Position numbers and translations under genes: made by a program | Assembly (NCBI GenBank): GCA_048882045.1 | Contig: JBHLRZ010000049.1 | Span: forward strand, 1 to 17,203 | DNA length: 17,203 nucleotides | From: Candidatus Thorarchaeota archaeon | Lineage (GTDB): Archaea > Asgardarchaeota > Thorarchaeia > Thorarchaeales > Thorarchaeaceae | Direction: 5' to 3' | The notes under the pieces: model-generated | The model's input: the letters and a program-made list of their open reading frames with translations, nothing else | Told to the model about the DNA's origin: nothing | Databases searched by the model: none | Shown: one piece after another, positions 697-7,764 of the stretch | Position numbering within the stretch: position 1 is the stretch's first letter | How the letters are laid out: each line of letters starts with the position of its first letter

Positions 697-722
697 CAGC
701 AGCAAGGGAGGAAGACCTCGAT

Positions 723-828
723 GGGCCGGTGGTCTAGCCCGGCTAATCTGTCATTTTGAATGGCAGAGTCGACTGATACTGCATTGACAGTGCAGTGGTC
801 ACGAGTTCAAATCTCGTCCGGCCCACCA
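723..828 (+). tRNA. tRNA-Val(GAC) with a non-canonical intron at about position 21/22; CCA encoded
   Basis: Acceptor stem GGGCCGG(723-729)/CCGGCCC(818-824) followed by A-CCA. Anticodon arm CTGCA-TTGACAG-TGCAG with GAC at 786-788. T-arm ACGAG-TTCAAAT-CTCGT. Removing 746-773 gives a normal D-arm (GGTCTAGCCCGGCTATGAT) and a 78-nt mature tRNA. Confidence 0.95.
746..773 (+). other. 28-nt tRNA intron with a bulge-helix-bulge/loop splice motif
   Basis: Central 4-bp helix CGGC/GTCG, 3-nt bulges TAA and ACT, and an intron hairpin TCTGTCATT-TTG-AATGGCAGA. Cleavage after the second nt of each bulge gives exactly the canonical D-loop. Confidence 0.85.
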
Positions 829-829
829 T

Positions 830-3601
830 CTATTTCTGTTTCAAAATCTTTGTCAGCTTAGACCATCCAATCCCCAGCTTATCCAGTGCCCACTGAGCAA
901 TGTTGTGGCAATCATGACAAACTAGAGCCCATTCTTCGGGGTTCAATTTTTGCAGGTTCTTCTTTCGATTTATCATTGCAGGATCATGTGTCTGTCCATC
1001 CTTTCTATGAAGAATCATTGGAACATCTGCAGAGTCGCAATTGCAGAGTGAGCATGTGTCTCCGAATAGTGCCTTCCTCAATTCCTTTTTAGTGAGGTTT
1101 GAATCCATCTTCTTAGCTTGTTTTGAAAGAGGTGCACTCTCGTCTGGAAGGTCTAGAACTCCTTTAGGTTTGACCGATTCCTTGGTGCGTGATTCAAGAA
1201 GTGACTCAATCTTCGCCCAATCATATCCATAGACATTCATGAGCAGATGTGCTCCCAGATGGCATCTATCACATAGAGGAGCCCATTCTTCGGGGTTCAA
1301 TGACTTGAGCTTCTTCAAAGACCGGAAAAGGTTTCTGTCATGTTCGGTCCCATCTTTTCTGTGTAGATGTAGACTCTTCTTTGATTCATTTTCAGTGTGA
1401 CATGCATAGCATTTATTCCCGAATATCTCGACACGAGTTTCTTTGAGCTTCATACGCCTATTTCTCTGATATTGTCTTCTCTCTTCGTCGATGTCTGTCT
1501 TTACTTTCGTTCTCTGTCTCTCTCGAGATTCCCACCCCTGATCATAGAATAATTTCTGGATGGTTTGTGAATGTACACCTAAAATCTCACCAATTTCCGA
1601 GTGAGAGAATCCTTCAACATAGTACAGGAGATAAACCCAATCAGGATCCAACTGTTTTCTAGTTGAGCGAGTCCTTTGATATGCCCAGTTATTCTTCTCG
1701 AAGGTTCGACGAACAGTCTTCATACTTACTCCCAAGATGTCGCATATCATCTCGAAGGAATATCCCTCCTGGAAATACAGCCTGCCAATCTCTTCAGCCT
1801 GTGTCTTGGATTTCTTTGGTCCAATCACTTTCCGAATCGTGGGCATGTCAAGTCCTGAGTACTCGGCTATCTGGAAGAAAGTCATCCCCTCCTCATGATG
1901 TAGCCTGCGAATCTCATCATCACTCAGTTTCTGTCTCTCTCTCTGTATTCGCATCTCCCAACCGTGCTTCCTGAACACTCCTCTGAGTATCTTGATTGTT
2001 AGGTCGAGGTCTGAGGCAATCTCTTGGAATGTCTGTCCCTCAGAATAGTACCTATGATGAATCTCTGCATCGCGGAGTGCCTTTCTCACCTGGTTCCTAG
2101 AGAGCCCTGTCTTCTTCGCAATCTCCCTCTCAGACAAGTTCTCCAATAGACGAAGCCTGACCACCTCCTCAAGAGGACCCTCCAGTTCGTTTGAGCTCTC
2201 GAATTCTTCGACCCGAGCCTCTTCTGCCTTCTCTACCACGCTTGACCATAGACTCTCCACCTCCTCTGCAAAGCTCCTGTCCTCAGAAACACCTTTCTCT
2301 CGGACTATCTGTTTGAACCGGTCTCGCTCCTCCTCTGAGAGCTCAGCAAAGAGGTTCCTGAGCTTTCTTCGTAACCTCTGTTCGTCGGACTCGTAATCTG
2401 ACAGTATCTTGTAGACTCGCTGCATCTCACCCGTTAGAGGGTCCTGAACATAGTCGTATTCATCGTCCATGTACTCATCTAACATATCTTGGACCTTCTT
2501 TACAAAGTCCTCCAGATCTTCTAGGACCTCTTCCTCCTCCAAGACCTCTTCGTCTGAAATCTCACCTTCTAGAACATCATCAGCCTCTTGTACTTCAGTA
2601 TCTTCCAACTCAGACTCTGCAGACTCAACAATTCTCTGGATTTCGTCACTCGCATCCTGAAACTCTGGTTCTTTAGCCTGTTCAATATCAGAGTCTAAAG
2701 CGGGTTCAGAAACATCCTCGACCTCAGCTGTCTGAGGCTCATCCTCATTGGCTTCAGATTCGGAAGCGGTTTCCATTGAATGGTTTGAGCTGTCCTCGAC
2801 ACTCTCAGGCCCCTCTCTCTTCGACTCGATTGAGTTGGTCATGTCTGACCTGTCATCATCAGCACTTGTTTCAGGCTTCGAAAAGTCTGATTCTGTTTCA
2901 GTGGATTTATGGTTGAGAGTGCCATCAGGAGATGTTTCATCTGTTTCTGTATGTTCCTGTCTGGTGAAACGATTTGTGAACTTGTCATTCACAGCATCTG
3001 TCGTTGCTTCTGGCTCTTCAACACTCCCTTCAGACTCATTGACATCTTGAAACGATTCTTCAGCCTCTTCTGAAGCTTCTTGTTCAGTTTCGGTCTGAGC
3101 CTCAGCCCCTCCTGAACCTCCCTTCGTTTCCAGAGCGTAGGCCATCCCGTTCCCAGCATCCTCATAGGACTCGCTCGATTCTGTCATGTCAGAGGATGAG
3201 CCTGTGTCACTGTCCTGCTCTTCGGATTCAGTTTCTTTGTAAGAGGGTTCCTCAAGTTGACGGTCCATGTCATTGACAAATCGGTCGTGAAGATCATCCC
3301 TGACCTCATCCAAGTCATGACCGAGGTCGTCCTCCATCGACCCCTCAGCATTTTCTTCGTTCTCCATCGAGTCAAGCTCTCTGGATGCTTCATCAGCCAA
3401 GTCTTTGGCATCCGCCTCTGTTTCATCTAGCTCCCGCGAAGCCTCGTCCGCATATCTTTCTGCTTCCTCCTCCCGCTCTAGATCTTTGACAGCCTCGTCC
3501 TCTGGGGACTCTTCGCTCTCATCGGTCTCTCGATATTCCTGCTCTTCGCCCTCTTCTGAGTCCGAATACCTCTCTCTGTCGTCTGAACGTTCATACGACA
3601 A
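830..3601 (-). CDS. 923-aa protein: long acidic disordered N-terminus, 5 tandem HTH repeats, 2 tandem Zn-binding HNH-like endonuclease domains
   Basis: The first ~460 aa are extremely E/D/S-rich. Five repeats resemble EIxRLYxxEGxSFxEIAxxLGxSxxTIRKxF (about 1530-2170). Two domains read FGxxCxxC...LHRKDGxxHD...LNPEEWAxxCxxCH (about 1245-1425 and 895-1065). The TTG start overlaps the upstream ATPase stop, and the TAG stop is 1 nt from the tRNA CCA. Confidence 0.85.
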   Translation of the reverse strand: MSYERSDDRERYSDSEEGEEQEYRETDESEESPEDEAVKDLEREEEAERYADEASRELDETEADAKDLADEASRELDSMENEENAEGSMEDDLGHDLDEVRDDLHDRFVNDMDRQLEEPSYKETESEEQDSDTGSSSDMTESSESYEDAGNGMAYALETKGGSGGAEAQTETEQEASEEAEESFQDVNESEGSVEEPEATTDAVNDKFTNRFTRQEHTETDETSPDGTLNHKSTETESDFSKPETSADDDRSDMTNSIESKREGPESVEDSSNHSMETASESEANEDEPQTAEVEDVSEPALDSDIEQAKEPEFQDASDEIQRIVESAESELEDTEVQEADDVLEGEISDEEVLEEEEVLEDLEDFVKKVQDMLDEYMDDEYDYVQDPLTGEMQRVYKILSDYESDEQRLRRKLRNLFAELSEEERDRFKQIVREKGVSEDRSFAEEVESLWSSVVEKAEEARVEEFESSNELEGPLEEVVRLRLLENLSEREIAKKTGLSRNQVRKALRDAEIHHRYYSEGQTFQEIASDLDLTIKILRGVFRKHGWEMRIQRERQKLSDDEIRRLHHEEGMTFFQIAEYSGLDMPTIRKVIGPKKSKTQAEEIGRLYFQEGYSFEMICDILGVSMKTVRRTFEKNNWAYQRTRSTRKQLDPDWVYLLYYVEGFSHSEIGEILGVHSQTIQKLFYDQGWESRERQRTKVKTDIDEERRQYQRNRRMKLKETRVEIFGNKCYACHTENESKKSLHLHRKDGTEHDRNLFRSLKKLKSLNPEEWAPLCDRCHLGAHLLMNVYGYDWAKIESLLESRTKESVKPKGVLDLPDESAPLSKQAKKMDSNLTKKELRKALFGDTCSLCNCDSADVPMILHRKDGQTHDPAMINRKKNLQKLNPEEWALVCHDCHNIAQWALDKLGIGWSKLTKILKQK
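925..1301. repeat. Perfect 23-bp direct repeat GAGCCCATTCTTCGGGGTTCAAT at 925-947 and 1279-1301
   Basis: Read directly from the sequence. It encodes LNPEEWA in both HNH domains. Confidence 0.9.
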
Positions 3602-6600
3602 CTTCAGACCCCTGACTCCTGATTTCTATGTTGACTGACTCGACAATTGTGTTCCAGAGTTCTTCATTCTCTGGAGTTCCCAGGATTGTCTTTGCATGCT
3701 GTAGCATCTTTGTTGCGACCAACTCTAGGTTATGATTATCACCGGCAGCTTTCTTTGAGAACACACGAATCATTCGAGCAATAGGAGTCGTATCTCCATT
3801 CACAGCCTTTCTCAAACGGTCATAGTACCGACTTGCGAACTGTTCTGTCCTGACGATTGCCTTGATGAAGAGGTCAAGTTCGTCCTCAGTCTCTGGTCTT
3901 CTGAAACTCGATTTCTCCTCAACCCGCTTCTTTGCTAGTTCATTAAATTCCTCAATGGAAGACTTCACGATGGAACGAATCTCTTTTCCAAGTGCATCTT
4001 CATCGACCGTGACTGACTTGATTCTGTGCGAAACTTCATTGTATAGACGCTGATAGATCAGGTCAATGTTCTCTGGGAGGATGTCATCTCTCCATAGATA
4101 ACCATCCCACTCCTCAACGATGTCTTCTTTGACTCTTGCTTCCTGCGACAGTATCCAGAGAATGTACTGACAATAGAAGAGAAGACCAGGTCCTTTTTCA
4201 GCAAGCTGTTTTGCTATCCCGCGAATGATGACCCCTCCTATGACAGGATTCCCACTCTTTGTGGCATCTATCATGGCTGAGAGTGCTCCATTGAAGGTCG
4301 AGTGGTTGAGAATCAGGTGTAGTTTGAACACATCGAGCATGTCGATTGATACGAGTCTACCACCCAGTTCATTGAGTTTTGGAGTGCTCATGGCAAGTGA
4401 TGATTTTCTCTGAAAGTGCGGATTCTCTTCAAATACGGATTGCATGCGCTGTCTGATGTCCTCGTCTGTCACAGGTGTGTCGTCAGAAAGCCGTGGATGT
4501 TTCTGGAAGGGATTGTCAATTCGGACTCTGACTGGTTTACTTGCACTTGCTGTCCTGACCACAGCTTCTCCCACTGGGAGGGCCCCCATCATCCTGATTT
4601 GCTCATCTGTGCAGTTCATCAGGTCTCCAAGGAGTTGGCGTTCACTCTTTGGTCCAGTGGCATGTACTATATTAGTGAGAGCCATTGTAATGGCTTCGTT
4701 GTTCAAGTGCAGTGGCTTTTGGGTTGCTATACTGAATCCAAGTCCGGCACTACGAGACTCCCTCATTGAAACGGTGATTGTGTCGATAGCCACATTCTGC
4801 GCAGCATGATCCTCATCCTCTTTGAGTCCCTTTCCACCAGAGAGAAACCGATGGGCCTCCTCCAAGACTACATAGAACTTCAGGCCCTTCTCGTGCATAG
4901 AATCCAACTTCTTCTTCGCTTCAAAGTGGCGACCCAGATTAGACACCAACCAATAGACGAAGAATGCACGTTCCTCCTTAGACAGCTTGTCGAGAAGAAT
5001 CACACTCGGTCTTGATACCAACTCTTCGATTGAGATTCCTGATATCGTGCCAAACACACGACTGAGCGCACCCTTGCATATCGTGCGGAGTCGTCCATAG
5101 AGGGCACCGCGAAAGTCTTCGTTTCCTCTGCTACTGTACTGGATGTCGTCTTCCATCTGTGGTAATGTTTCTAAGAAGTCTGACAATAGAATGGGAATCC
5201 CTCTAGTGTTAGTGTCGCGGTTCCAACCCAACCGTTCGAATGTGAGCTCAATCAGGGCCTCAAGATACTCCTTGATCATCCCATGAGTGGGCATCATAGC
5301 CACGAATGCAGCCTTTGTGTCGTTGATTATGGAGCTAACATGAACACCTCTCCCATAGGCTGTGAATGAGAACCTCAGGGGAGCTACTGTTTCATCTCCA
5401 AGTGTGAAGATCCAAAGTGAATCAAGAACTCTTGTTAATTTCACATACTCCTCGCTCTTAGAGGCAAGCAGAACGAGGAAGTTGATCTTTCTCTCTTGGA
5501 GTTGGAGGAGGATGTTGAGCTGAGTTGTCGTTTTTCCTCTTCCAGTATCACCAGTGAGCCCAGTATGAGATGCTAAATCGATAACTGGAATCCCAAAGTC
5601 CGAAATCTCTCTTCCTGTATCATCAACAATCTTGCCTATTCTGATAACATCTCCATCAATCTTAGAACCAGTTCTAGGATGAAGATTCGCTGGATTGGAA
5701 CGGAAAGCGGCGTGGTCTGAAACGGAGATACCGACATCACACTTTGGGAGGGGGAGAAAGACACATGCCTCTTCAAGCGACATTATTGTAGACTTGCCAA
5801 TAGGGATTCCCTTGAGGAGCTTTGGGACCTGTTGCGGCTTGACCTTCTTGGTCATTGTTCTGAAGTCATTTCTCTTATCTGCTGGAATCAGGTTCCCTCT
5901 TAGAACTGTCATCAATCTTCCAGCCATGTTTTCAGCAATCTTCTTTGTAAGCTCCCAGCTGATGATAGTCACTTCGGTATCGCATACATGACTGTGGCTC
6001 AGACGCTTGATCTTCTTCTGTATTGACTCTGCTTCCTGAGCGGCCCGGGAATCTACCTTGGTCACTGACTGTTGTATCTCTCCTGAGAAGAGTGTGGACT
6101 GTGGACTCGATACGGTCATCTGAGCTTGTGCCATCGCCTGCCGATACTTGTTTTCCAATGATTTCCTAGCCCGATCACTCGGTGTTTTTGGAGTGAATGA
6201 GATCTGGATGATGGCATCTGACATACCCTGCAAGACCTCGGCAACAGCAGTCATTAGGTCCCCGTTCTGCTGCGGGTCTTCTATCGTGAGAGGTTCACCA
6301 ACCAAATGAGAAAGAACATAGACCATCCTAGAGTCGGTTGAAGGCCCATTGAATCTGGAGTGGGTCTTGAACTTGAAATCGGGTAGTGTTGCCTTGATGG
6401 CATCTGTGAGTGTCTGGATGTTATTTGGAAGCTGTATCAGTTCCGTAGTCCAGGTGATATAGAGGATGCGTGTATTGTTATCGACACGCTGATACCTTAG
6501 AGCTCCAGGGATATTGGAGAGTGTCAAAGCGCGTAGTATATTGTAAAATGGCTTATGAGGTCGGTCCTCATTCTTATCCACAAAATACTCCTCAGGAAAC

Positions 6601-6680
6601 TGTGTGATTTCTACAGCTCCAACGAAGAACTCTCTTCCAGATGTGAGCAGTTTCCCGATTTCAGCCAAGATTTCGGACAC
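3591..6680 (-). CDS. HerA/FtsK/VirB4-superfamily (DUF87-like) P-loop ATPase, 1029 aa
   Basis: Walker A H-x-G-x-T-GDTGRGKT (about 5529-5552), Walker B YVVLEEAHRF (about 4845-4874), and the downstream ESRSAGLGFSIATQKP motif typical of HerA/VirB4. GGAGGA SD precedes the GTG start. Confidence 0.9.
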   Translation of the reverse strand: MSEILAEIGKLLTSGREFFVGAVEITQFPEEYFVDKNEDRPHKPFYNILRALTLSNIPGALRYQRVDNNTRILYITWTTELIQLPNNIQTLTDAIKATLPDFKFKTHSRFNGPSTDSRMVYVLSHLVGEPLTIEDPQQNGDLMTAVAEVLQGMSDAIIQISFTPKTPSDRARKSLENKYRQAMAQAQMTVSSPQSTLFSGEIQQSVTKVDSRAAQEAESIQKKIKRLSHSHVCDTEVTIISWELTKKIAENMAGRLMTVLRGNLIPADKRNDFRTMTKKVKPQQVPKLLKGIPIGKSTIMSLEEACVFLPLPKCDVGISVSDHAAFRSNPANLHPRTGSKIDGDVIRIGKIVDDTGREISDFGIPVIDLASHTGLTGDTGRGKTTTQLNILLQLQERKINFLVLLASKSEEYVKLTRVLDSLWIFTLGDETVAPLRFSFTAYGRGVHVSSIINDTKAAFVAMMPTHGMIKEYLEALIELTFERLGWNRDTNTRGIPILLSDFLETLPQMEDDIQYSSRGNEDFRGALYGRLRTICKGALSRVFGTISGISIEELVSRPSVILLDKLSKEERAFFVYWLVSNLGRHFEAKKKLDSMHEKGLKFYVVLEEAHRFLSGGKGLKEDEDHAAQNVAIDTITVSMRESRSAGLGFSIATQKPLHLNNEAITMALTNIVHATGPKSERQLLGDLMNCTDEQIRMMGALPVGEAVVRTASASKPVRVRIDNPFQKHPRLSDDTPVTDEDIRQRMQSVFEENPHFQRKSSLAMSTPKLNELGGRLVSIDMLDVFKLHLILNHSTFNGALSAMIDATKSGNPVIGGVIIRGIAKQLAEKGPGLLFYCQYILWILSQEARVKEDIVEEWDGYLWRDDILPENIDLIYQRLYNEVSHRIKSVTVDEDALGKEIRSIVKSSIEEFNELAKKRVEEKSSFRRPETEDELDLFIKAIVRTEQFASRYYDRLRKAVNGDTTPIARMIRVFSKKAAGDNHNLELVATKMLQHAKTILGTPENEELWNTIVESVNIEIRSQGSEVVV

Positions 6681-6896
6681 TCATTCTCCTCCGTTTGATC
6701 TTGGTCTTGTTGCCAGGGCACGATTGATTGGGTCCCGACAATGGGAGCAAGCATGCAAACTCCACCACACGCCTGTTCCACACTTCCAACCTACTTTTCC
6801 ACTCATATCGAGGTATGGCCCCTCCCATCGTCGGGGATTCTTGGGAAGTGAGTGTGAGGTCCTCCTTGGTGGAAGGATACCTCTGGGGGGTTTCAC
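6681..6896 (-). CDS. Small hypothetical protein with a Cys/His cluster, possibly the first gene of the ATPase-HNH operon
   Basis: The 71-aa ORF's TGA directly abuts the ATPase GTG start (TGA-GTG). It contains WKC...HACSHC. Competing ORFs overlap it. Confidence 0.4.
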   Translation of the reverse strand: MKPPRGILPPRRTSHSLPKNPRRWEGPYLDMSGKVGWKCGTGVWWSLHACSHCRDPINRALATRPRSNGGE

Positions 6897-7239
6897 ATCC
6901 TTTTACATCTGGAGATACCATCATCCTTTCACTCCCTACTGCGATCTACCATCACACAAGATTGCCCAAAGCCCTTTACTCAAGGGGCAATAGAATGTAT
7001 GGGGGCTCTAGTGTTGGAAGGGATAGTCCAAAATCCTCTGTTTTTCTTGTTCTCCGGGTGTGACTCTTAATTGCAGATGAAATTGGCCTGAGACTGGTCT
7101 TCACCTCATCGCGTATGCCGCATTTTGCACAAGGACTAAAGGTTCAAAGTGATATATCAAACGCCACTCTACATGATTGCGGGATTATTGGGAATGCTAC
7201 GTGAGCTTGTTATGAAGCTAGATTTCCTTCCAGATTTAT

Positions 7240-7764
7240 ATGCCTCCAAGAGTAAAATTTTCCATGTCAATGAAGAAGCAAGCCCCAGATGTTGACAAAC
7301 TTGCAAAATCAGTTGACGATAATTTTAGTCGGCCAATGTATGTGCTATATTTCCTATGGGCAACTGGATTCTTCACAATAATCGGGATTACAGTATATTT
7401 AGTCACGTTAATGGTAGCTATAGGATTCCAGACAGGTGCACTCACCGTAGATAGTACAATATCTAGCACAGTTGCTATTTTAGCTCTAATGATTAGTATC
7501 ACACAATATAGTGAGAAATCTAACAAAGTTGAAGATGATGATTTTGCTATAGATTGTATCAAAAAGAATCTCAAGATTCTAACTAAGAAGAATCCCAATC
7601 TGACTGAGGATGAGAAACTGATTCTAAGTGGATTAATCAAGATGAAATCAAGAAATGAAAAGGCCAACATACAGGATGTCGCAAAATATCTATCCACAAG
7701 TACTGATGATTGGATTGCTTTTCTTTATGGACTGGGTGATGGATCCTCCCTTTTGAAGGATTAA
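7240..7764 (+). CDS. Hypothetical membrane protein (2 TM helices plus a small soluble C-terminal domain)
   Basis: 174-aa ORF with two hydrophobic segments. Its stop overlaps that of the convergent 633-aa ORF (TTAA at 7761-7764). Confidence 0.7.
   Translation: MPPRVKFSMSMKKQAPDVDKLAKSVDDNFSRPMYVLYFLWATGFFTIIGITVYLVTLMVAIGFQTGALTVDSTISSTVAILALMISITQYSEKSNKVEDDDFAIDCIKKNLKILTKKNPNLTEDEKLILSGLIKMKSRNEKANIQDVAKYLSTSTDDWIAFLYGLGDGSSLLKD

Follow-up and report, generated by a model that had tools for sequence, protein, structure and literature searches.

A HerA/VirB4-clade ATPase and its acidic HTH-HNH partner at a tRNA-Val gene of Thorarchaeia: a candidate tRNA-directed, homing-type module

Introduction

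In HerA-NurA, Sir2-HerA, DUF4297-HerA, TdpAB and DndFGH, the gene for a HerA-clade motor shares an operon with that for a nuclease-type partner, and in type VII secretion the FtsK-family secretion ATPase EssC is combined with LXG/EsaD nuclease toxins and their immunity proteins. Eukaryotes have their closest known relatives in the Asgard archaea, and, as far as we are aware, little is known about DNA exchange between their genomes. Here we analyse a 17.2-kb stretch of Asgard DNA (17,203 nucleotides, nt; hereafter the window), which is the entire contig C49 (JBHLRZ010000049.1) of the Candidatus Thorarchaeota genome G000 (3.6 Mb, 93% complete); close homologs of the window's proteins likewise carry the name Thorarchaeota. 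The window contains an operon of a HerA/VirB4-clade ATPase (P0002) and an acidic protein with five helix-turn-helix (HTH) repeats and two HNH-like repeats (P0001), and the latter gene stops one nucleotide short of the CCA end of a tRNA-Val(GAC) gene. Our tentative view is that this operon may be a selfish module of the homing type that is directed at tRNA genes and uses the ATPase as an accessory DNA motor.

The pair resembles the HerA systems named above in its operon arrangement and in the fold of its motor, the core of which matches theirs with Z-scores of 21-30. Unlike in those systems, however, the partner is not NurA, Sir2, DUF4297 or TdpB but a protein of about 900-1300 amino acids (aa) that consists of an acidic, disordered half and a swappable tip; in addition, most of the ATPase paralogs possess an anchor of four transmembrane segments (4-TM), and all of them bear extra N- and C-terminal domains. 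Full-text literature searches retrieved no description of a HerA-clade ATPase paired with a homing-endonuclease-type partner.

The second group of systems to be compared comprises free-standing homing endonuclease genes, such as those of MobE (PMC2790892) and of SegB, the homing endonuclease that phages T4/T6 encode in their tRNA gene cluster (PMC13096335). The family described here shares with them modular DNA-binding repeats, a position beside the presumed target in conserved genes, presence/absence polymorphism, decayed copies and the association with tRNA genes. It differs from SegB and MobE in being chromosomal and archaeal, in carrying two HNH units behind five HTH repeats, and in being often fused to an acidic half and accompanied by a motor ATPase; the insertions here also carry kilobases of cargo and a replacement tRNA part, and cleavage is a prediction. 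For the Heimdallarchaeal element HeimM2, an Asgard example, Wu et al. (2022; PMC8813620) put forward the idea that a homolog of homing endonucleases had been co-opted to integrate the element site-specifically next to a tRNA gene. HeimM2 is thus also an integrated Asgard element with such a homolog next to a tRNA gene, but its endonuclease is of the rRNA-intron type and it lies between the 16S rRNA gene and tRNA-Arg (PMC8813620); neither HerA nor HNH occurs in the text of that paper.

Two further systems need to be mentioned. What defines a tycheposon is its site-specific recombinase, usually of the tyrosine and rarely of the serine type (bioRxiv 10.1101/2020.12.28.424599). As in tycheposons, the cargo units downstream of the tRNA are split by tRNA 3' fragments and a putative mobility gene occupies the tRNA-proximal end; unlike in tycheposons, it is the HNH gene that holds the integrase-like position, no recombinase was detected in the window or the genome, and some units carry a whole inserted tRNA. 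Polymorphic toxin systems join C-terminal nuclease modules that recombine to an N-terminal part that stays constant (Zhang et al. 2012, PMC3482391), which is also the layout of the partner proteins described below. A membrane-bound ATPase of the FtsK/HerA superfamily in most paralogs and a small open reading frame (ORF) downstream of some loci are, moreover, reminiscent of type VII secretion. In contrast to both, no WXG or LXG domains were found here, the C-terminal modules are of homing-endonuclease type, the ATPase of the window is anchorless, and its locus leaves no room for an immunity gene.

The operon and its two proteins

P0002 (1029 aa; 3591-6680, minus strand) and P0001 (923 aa; 830-3601, minus strand) form a genuine operon of a HerA/VirB4-clade ATPase and an acidic 5xHTH-2xHNH protein. 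The two ORFs overlap by 11 nt (3591-3601), and the identical 11-nt overlap is found at the loci L002 and L005. The TAG stop codon of P0001 (830-832) lies 1 nt from the encoded CCA (826-828) of tRNA-Val(GAC) (721-828, plus strand), the docking site of the pair. The original prediction, drawn from the nucleotide sequence, had proposed a HerA/VirB4-like ATPase, the acidic array protein and both of these junctions, and our analysis bears it out on each of these points.

P0002 is composed of an N-terminal alpha/beta domain (residues ~19-310), a P-loop motor (~325-760) and a C-terminal helical domain (~780-1021). Its Walker A (GDTGRGKT, residues 377-384) and Walker B (VVLEEAH, 604-610) motifs are readily recognised, and G377, G382, K383, E608 and A609 are invariant among 31 homologs. 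The AlphaFold model built with these 31 homologs had a mean predicted local distance difference test score (pLDDT) of 83.8. When its core (about residues 325-735) was superposed on known structures, the best match was the C-domain of DndH (7es4; Z 30.5, root-mean-square deviation 2.8, 339 aligned residues), followed by VirB4 (4ag5; Z 29.4), HerA (4d2i; Z 29.1), TrwB (Z 22.7) and FtsK (Z 17.5). Foldseek agreed on the fold (TrwK/VirB4 at 1.9e-14). Sequence profiles gave weak but consistent matches, namely to PADLOC mad8/HerA, to the NCBIfam CedD and HerA models and to the PDB sequences of solved HerA chains, and no Pfam match at E<=0.01. The best NCBIfam match, CedD (8e-13), scored 47.9 bits against a cutoff of 600, and the HerA models 20-29 bits against cutoffs of 800-970. 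P0002 is a member of the HerA/VirB4 clade of the FtsK-HerA superfamily that reaches the cutoff of no named equivalog. An assignment of the pair to MADS was rejected, as the PADLOC mad8/mad1 matches reflect the generic HerA core and HTH; other MADS components were not searched for. In viral contigs we found only distant relatives (25-29%) of the ATPase core, and therefore no sign of a viral origin. The matches in bacterial and Nitrososphaerota genomes were likewise restricted to the core.

The N-terminal half of P0001 (aa 1-461; 2219-3601, minus strand) is of low complexity and is common to partners with different C-terminal modules; aspartate and glutamate make up 30-46% of residues 1-480. It is followed by five HTH repeats resembling sigma70 region 4 and Cbp1 (aa ~478-690; 1532-2170, minus strand), which matched Pfam Sigma70_r4_2 (1.5e-21) and HTH_23 (1.8e-13), NCBIfam Cbp1 (4.5e-8) and, among PDB profiles, the 'CAP repeat' of 8vd6 (1.5e-8) and the DeoR HTH; the structure search VIA also returned HTH matches, at Z~5.

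Two HNH-like repeats complete the protein (aa ~728-790, 1232-1420; aa ~847-905, 887-1063; both minus strand), and both bear the motif CxxC...H-[RK]-K-D-x3-H...W-x2-LCxxCH-x3-H. In alignment A4, which comprises 23 fused and free-standing homologs, the residues C731, C734, H747, K749, D750, H754, W773, C777, C780, H781 and H785 of repeat 1 are invariant, and C850, C853, H865, K867, H872, W891, C895 and H899 of repeat 2 are nearly so. The putative catalytic and zinc residues are thus kept in both units, in fused as well as free-standing forms. In the structural model of this region (pLDDT 86), each repeat is a beta-beta-alpha unit with a His in the first strand; in A4 numbering, H747 sits in strand 155-158 and CxxCH opens helix 188-199. 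Database searches were less telling. The L006 homolog reached 16.8 bits with Pfam HNH (cutoff 21.4), and the PHROG 'HNH endonuclease' families matched P0001 at 1.6e-18, largely through the HTH region. Foldseek returned Cas5-HNH, McrA and Gme-HNH as weak rows (E about 0.7-1.5), and the list given by VIA consisted mostly of HTH domains, its top HNH-type row being Cap5 (7rwm; Z 4.9, residues 127-216). Since the fold searches were dominated by HTH domains and their HNH rows were weak, the HNH call rests on motif, conservation and topology. The structural check proposed with the original prediction has settled the fold of the ATPase core and returned for the HNH part nothing stronger than these rows.

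Association of the HTH-HNH head with tRNA genes

P0001 has 11 close homologs. All homologs of its C-terminal half (the head) with enough flanking sequence lie in a common dUTPase neighbourhood, and all of them end at tRNA-Val(GAC). Nine distinct intact HTH-HNH genes end between -25 and +7 nt from the 3' end of this tRNA, and four fossils of the 3' end of such a gene sit flush on it; one of the four is found in the window at the tRNA repeat R4 (the same fossil as on contig C91, see below), and the others in the genomes G042, G071 and G035. The ATPases that accompany the HTH-HNH genes at tRNA-Val(GAC) are 100%, 56% (L170), about 30% (L006) and 28% identical to P0002, and three HTH-HNH partners stand at tRNAs with no adjacent ATPase. 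In contrast, the ATPase of L002 is 81% identical to P0002, yet its partner has a LAGLIDADG C-half and belongs to a tRNA-Trp island. The site follows the head, not the ATPase.

The association extends to the wider family (97 representatives at E<=1e-30; ~60-90 clusters at 50% identity). More distant members, fused or free-standing (many are free-standing proteins of 300-570 aa), adjoin Val(TAC), Val(CAC), Leu(GAG)-like and other tRNAs in one of three geometries: convergent and flush on the tRNA 3' end, on the same strand just downstream, or on the same strand just upstream. As the Rfam tRNA model overlooks most multi-intron tRNAs of these genomes, we substituted our own detector of T-arm and acceptor, which is intron-tolerant and conservative and found 35 tRNAs in G000. 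With this detector, a tRNA lies <=150 nt away in 17 of the 29 family loci, compared with 1.2% of the G000 ORFs of >=250 aa when the distance is limited to 100 nt. Beside tRNA genes, the wider HNH family is hence enriched ~50-fold; its related loci are not independent, but no fewer than eight distinct tRNA contexts contribute to the count. Among members of a single genus, the locus at tRNA-Val can be occupied, fossil-bearing or module-free, and decayed copies are seen. Taken together, the flush genes and fossils and the enrichment suggest that the HTH-HNH protein is a site-specific, homing-endonuclease-like module tied to tRNA genes, much as the original prediction had proposed. In L313 (6330-6346), the end of the HTH-HNH ORF falls within the T-loop of the Leu(GAG)-like tRNA sequence, which has no 3' part.

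The tRNA-Val(GAC) gene itself shows a GGGCCGG/CCGGCCC acceptor stem, a T-arm, a GAC anticodon loop and the encoded CCA, all readable directly in the sequence, and is interrupted in the D-arm by a non-canonical intron of ~28 nt at about 746-773. It was detected by Rfam (24.8 bits), by ARAGORN with introns allowed (723-828) and by our own detector (723-825). With default settings ARAGORN reported zero tRNAs in the window, overlooking this gene because of the D-arm intron.

Within the genus, tRNA-Val(GAC) is unusually variable. The comparison of the window gene (721-828) with those of L006, L167-L171, L192-L196, L216, L219, L220 and L294 distinguished at least five alleles of the T-stem, in which changes on the two sides compensate each other (ACGAG/CTCGT, ACGTG/CACGT, GGGAG/CTCCC, GCGTG/CACGC and ACGCG/CGCGT) and two acceptor alleles (GGGCCGG and GGGTCGG). 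The introns vary in both number and position, occurring in the D-arm, at the canonical position 37/38, or at both.

A two-gene family with exchangeable heads

The ATPase family was found in 42 of the 87 Thorarchaeia genomes surveyed, often in several copies and with a patchy distribution even inside the genus. The ATPase gene is almost always followed by an overlapping gene for a large partner, and the operon is a member of a Thorarchaeia-specific two-gene system of motor ATPase and large partner. Most of the ATPase paralogs start with four TM-like segments, and such segments are missing from P0002, the L002 copy and a few others. The expectation that homologs of both proteins would co-occur and adjoin tRNA genes was borne out in part: overlapping pairs are the rule and the HTH-HNH type is flush on tRNAs, but most ATPase paralogs are paired with LAGLIDADG-type partners located elsewhere.

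The C-terminal halves of the partners are exchangeable. Residues 1-461 of P0001 are 60% identical to the partner in L002 (BLASTP), the ATPase of which is 81% identical to P0002, whereas the C-halves beyond this point are unrelated; tblastn matched the N-half in further loci as well. The C-half of the L002/L007 type is present in 16 of 20 paralogous loci and is LAGLIDADG-like: in L007 and L232 it scores above the threshold of Pfam LAGLIDADG_3, and its neighbours in the ESM Atlas, whether sought by features or by structure, are without exception homing endonucleases of the LAGLIDADG/DOD kind. A third type is encoded after an anchored ATPase paralog in L225 (5644-7500 of the locus, G052:C10); it has eight NUMOD3 repeats (4.5e-54) and an HNH domain above the Pfam cutoff, and is without the long acidic half. 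Judged by their domains, the partners thus combine a constant acidic half with one of three putative homing-endonuclease-type heads: HTHx5+HNHx2 (class A), HTH+LAGLIDADG (class B, the majority) or NUMOD3x8+HNH.

Directly downstream of six class-B partners there is a conserved ORF of ~196 aa, with 26-69% identity among the copies and no Pfam match (L223 9533-10123; L224 2041-2631; L228 1309-1962; L230 2225-2818; L238 7699-8301; L240 3098-3691). It was not found at the other class-B loci or at any class-A locus.

The LAGLIDADG pair of L002 lies inside an island anchored at tRNA-Trp (8760-21650), whose borders are marked by repeats of the tRNA-Trp 3' end (18 and 16 nt) and which is missing from the tRNA-Trp locus of G000. 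The island encodes, in order, the ATPase that is the closest relative of P0002, the LAGLIDADG partner, an Mrr_cat protein, a 368-aa ORF and a HEPN_AbiV protein. A 35-nt tRNA-Trp fragment is also present at 8661-8695 of L002, just upstream of tRNA-Trp. At L007, the region directly downstream of the LAGLIDADG pair (16693-18742) encodes urocanase as two ORFs, one of 128 aa covering Urocanase_N positions 1-43 and a second of 543 aa starting from position 48; the split may reflect a frameshift, a disruption at the end of the pair or simply a fault in the assembly.

Insertion of module-bearing segments into tRNA genes

Segments bearing the module are bounded by the tRNA and a direct repeat of its 3' part. 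In the window, the segment (829-9742) measures 8.9 kb and its distal boundary is the repeat R1 (9743-9795, plus strand), which extends from the anticodon loop to just past CCA and is 96-98% identical to the 3' half of the tRNA (784-828 versus 9745-9790). The corresponding segments are 13.2 kb in L006, 8.4 kb in G067 and 3.1 kb in G054, the last being the partner gene alone. In G054, G067, G038 and the L006 genome, the 5' part of the resident tRNA, cut around the anticodon loop, stays beside its promoter; flush with the HNH gene stands a tRNA-Val that is complete and belongs to another allele (acceptor GGGTCGG, T-stem GGGAG/CTCCC); and the 3' part of the resident tRNA is found 3-13 kb further on. 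A resident tRNA that is split in this way, next to a complete copy of a different allele, indicates that the units were inserted into the tRNA gene together with a replacement tRNA.

The same assembly provides a second, diverged version of the locus on contig C91 (L294; 2648 bp). It carries in order a dUTPase gene (96% aa identity), a tRNA-Val with the older ACGTG/CACGT T-stem, an HNH fossil and the gene for P0003 (95%); its 117-aa ORF is only 46% identical to the copy in the window, and its tRNA introns differ. The block at 830-13780 of the window is missing from C91, so that the window carries an insertion when compared with this co-occurring strain. The module and its flanks are assembled at equal depth in the source metagenomes, where several different sequences follow the tRNA CCA. 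Contigs aligned to the window end at each of the tRNA repeats, and the sides of the joints span 22-37 nt, a length at which they are unusable as evidence of excision.

The fossil of an older HTH-HNH gene 3' end lies at 13806-13854 (minus strand) beside the repeat R4, and is found flush on the intact tRNA in C91. Its alignment (...EFEWIKLTKILRKK and the stop, against ...IGWSKLTKILKQK and the stop) scored z = 8.2 relative to shuffles, and the same comparison yielded no significant HNH fossil at R3, R5 or R6. The DNA repeat D3 had led us to expect that P0003 (848 aa) is an HNH paralog, but it proved to be an unrelated secreted or membrane protein; its stop codon lies within the HNH fossil.

The T-loop (GTTCAA) forms a second junction point in the array: R2 ends and R4 begins there in the window (11185-11211, 13781-13807), with a 7-bp duplication, TGTTCAA, at R2/R4, and the distal repeat of G054 also begins at the T-loop (L257, 14401-14426). 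The single-gene unit between R3 and R4 (13161-13763) encodes a uracil-DNA glycosylase-family protein (Pfam UDG, 8.9e-11), and the array that holds it starts beside a dUTPase gene.

As far as recombinases are concerned, the description of the locus as integrase-less has held up. None of the large ORFs of the window contains a recombinase domain, and in G000 there was no match to PF00589 (Phage_integrase), PF00239 (Resolvase) or PF16795 (Phage_integr_3), with which control genomes did match; no Xer-type recombinase was accordingly found with these models either. Among the 28 genomes of the genus surveyed, only 8 had a PF00589 match.

Proposed mechanism and competing explanations

The homing-type heads with their long arrays for reading DNA, the HTH-HNH head's nucleotide-precise relation to tRNA genes regardless of the motor, the turnover of copies and the entry at loop positions lead us to favour a tRNA-gene-directed, homing-type selfish module with the ATPase as an accessory DNA motor, although we put its probability at only about 0.4. 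Cleavage, its target, the route of repair and the role of the motor are what we infer from this pattern. The C-half of P0001, with its five HTH and two HNH repeats, would be a sequence-specific DNA-binding and cutting module aimed at the tRNA-Val(GAC) gene, which would explain the position of its own gene. It would break tRNA-Val genes that do not yet carry the module, at the anticodon loop, the T-loop or the 3' junction, and the break would then be mended by copying or joining in a unit made up of the HNH gene, the adjoining tRNA part (or the whole tRNA) and whatever lies behind it. The ATPase, common to all partner types, would not determine the site but may process ends or move DNA. A more far-reaching version describes an integrase-free movement of DNA in Asgard archaea, in which HTH-HNH proteins would cut tRNA genes in the DNA that codes for the anticodon loop or T-loop and drive the insertion of units with a replacement tRNA part and cargo, the motor would resect ends or pump DNA between cells, and serial invasion and decay would leave the cassette arrays of Thorarchaeia and drive the turnover of tRNA-Val alleles. 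We consider this version, taken as a whole, rather unlikely.

Several observations weigh against a homing-type module. P0001 has no match to Pfam HNH (PF01844), and neither Foldseek nor VIA recovered a clear HNH fold for it. The order dUTPase-tRNA-Val-HNH is kept in relatives whose HNH regions are 51-74% identical to that of P0001; because this synteny is conserved, part of the recurrence at tRNA-Val(GAC) is vertical inheritance among loci that are not independent. The LAGLIDADG pairs, which are the majority, are not flush on tRNAs, and both the 4-TM anchor of most ATPase paralogs and the small ORF downstream of six class-B partners fit an export or toxin-immunity function. Direct repeats of a tRNA 3' part are, furthermore, the classic scar of site-specific recombinases and not of homing. 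Finally, similar arrays exist without the module. Five genomes (G033, G032, G045, G029 and G046) have arrays of tRNA-Val fragments with neither the ATPase nor the HNH gene at the locus, and one of them, G045, has no match to the ATPase, HNH or PF00589 anywhere in the genome. G000, which has one copy each of the ATPase and HNH genes, has cargo-only arrays at tRNA-Leu(CAG) (4 repeats), Leu(TAG) and Phe(GAA) (L310-L312; C9:63400-68200, C2:94299-95000 and C54:9361-12200). The units of these arrays are single genes closely set between the repeats, namely those for a beta-propeller/TSP3 surface protein, ketopantoate reductase and small ORFs, and none of the three arrays contains a recombinase or HNH gene. 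Arrays of this kind thus do not depend on the module in cis, and another mechanism makes them that could also have placed the segment of the window.

The last observation bears directly on the idea, put forward as a possibility in the original prediction, that the ATPase-HNH pair is the engine of the array. In its full form, the pair would be the recombination engine that assembles and supplies the entire tRNA-Val cassette array and works in trans on the cargo cassettes. The pair is the tRNA-proximal unit and includes the only nuclease-type gene in the window, an older copy has left its fossil deeper in the array, no integrase is detectable in array or genome, and the junctions lie at tRNA loops, with the TGTTCAA duplication at R2/R4. 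Equivalent arrays nevertheless occur where the module is missing, an outcome that the original prediction had itself named as refuting, and G000, whose only HNH gene has a long HTH array that is presumably specific, carries arrays at three other tRNAs. The pair as engine of the array is thus not supported, and we regard it as improbable. The main rival, which the original prediction had offered as its alternative (a nuclease-ATPase defence or secretion/effector module), is alive: the pair may be a conflict system, either a polymorphic nuclease effector that a HerA/FtsK-type machine handles, with toxin export and immunity, or a HerA-nuclease defence complex acting inside the cell, carried as cargo of tRNA islands that some recombinase moves, so that the flush position would merely mark the gene at the island's end. 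A constant acidic N-half with swappable nuclease C-halves is a hallmark of polymorphic effectors, the N-terminal 4-TM anchor of most paralogs recalls FtsK, EssC and type IV coupling proteins, and the ~196-aa ORF could be an inhibitor. The structures closest to the ATPase, moreover, are the defence motors DndH, HerA-Sir2, HerA-DUF4297 and TdpA, with PADLOC HerA/mad8 matches pointing the same way, while the Mrr and HEPN_AbiV genes of the L002 island, the patchy multi-copy distribution and the cassette arrays devoid of the module fit equally well. On the other hand, reading arrays of five HTH, eight NUMOD3 or a double LAGLIDADG are unusual for toxins and defence effectors, P0002 has no membrane anchor, and the locus has no room for a downstream immunity ORF because the P0001 gene abuts the tRNA. 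The HTH-HNH head also keeps its tRNA position with three ATPase lineages and with no adjacent ATPase at all, as do free-standing members of the family. A conflict system is, in our judgement, possible but on the unlikely side.

Two other explanations are weaker. The pair may be a minimal DNA-transfer system in which the partner marks or nicks a specific chromosomal site and the motor pumps DNA into another cell, the locus being spread by recombination, as in Streptomyces TraB-clt, coupling protein-relaxase pairs or Ced. The motor is indeed nearest to VirB4, TrwB, HerA and FtsK, its top NCBIfam match (CedD, 8e-13) is a DNA-translocating ATPase, most paralogs have membrane anchors, the partner has site-specific DNA-binding arrays, and the strain-level replacement of entire array blocks, in which the tRNA allele differs too, suggests that long stretches of DNA are transferred. 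This has to be set against the anchorless P0002, the loci with a partner only and the lack of other conjugation or pilus genes nearby, and we judge such a system to be as improbable as the array engine. The least probable explanation is an old, vertically inherited resident, that is, a domesticated DNA-binding regulator or chromosome-handling factor with an inactive or irrelevant nuclease and a merely historical tRNA adjacency. The conserved dUTPase-tRNA-Val-HNH order would be expected of such a resident, and HTH arrays are also found in regulators. It is difficult to reconcile with the co-assembled strain that lacks the module, with fossils that show repeated loss, with the differing ATPase lineages at the site (30%, 56% and 100%), with units inserted into the tRNA together with a foreign tRNA allele, with related genes at other tRNAs and with the invariance of the catalytic-type residues.

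In most genomes of the genus, cassette arrays anchored at tRNAs are present but an integrase is not detected, and the module joins a DNA motor to interchangeable heads of putative homing-endonuclease type, one type of which keeps a nucleotide-precise position at tRNA genes. Should the homing-type module be genuine and the head cut tRNA genes, this would explain integrase-free site choice, the replacement-tRNA architecture and the rapid, compensated turnover of tRNA-Val alleles; the family may then also be a source of natural, modular DNA-targeting proteins with long recognition sites. If the pair is an effector or defence system instead, it would represent an undescribed one that uses homing-endonuclease domains as weapons.

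Minor features of the locus

The original prediction had placed a small Cys-containing ORF at the head of the operon. This 71-aa ORF (6681-6896, minus strand) is indeed in the same frame as the ATPase, from which it is separated by TGA and then GTG, but its status as a gene was rejected. Upstream of the L002/L004 ATPase, which is 81% identical to P0002, the DNA of this region has no conserved counterpart, and searches of profile libraries gave no family match; the ORF is probably not a gene but non-coding leader DNA. The 8.9-kb segment is composite in base composition, with a GC content of 0.471 in the module (830-6896) and 0.386 in the rest of the segment (6897-9742), as against 0.41 in the remaining array and 0.442 in the genome.

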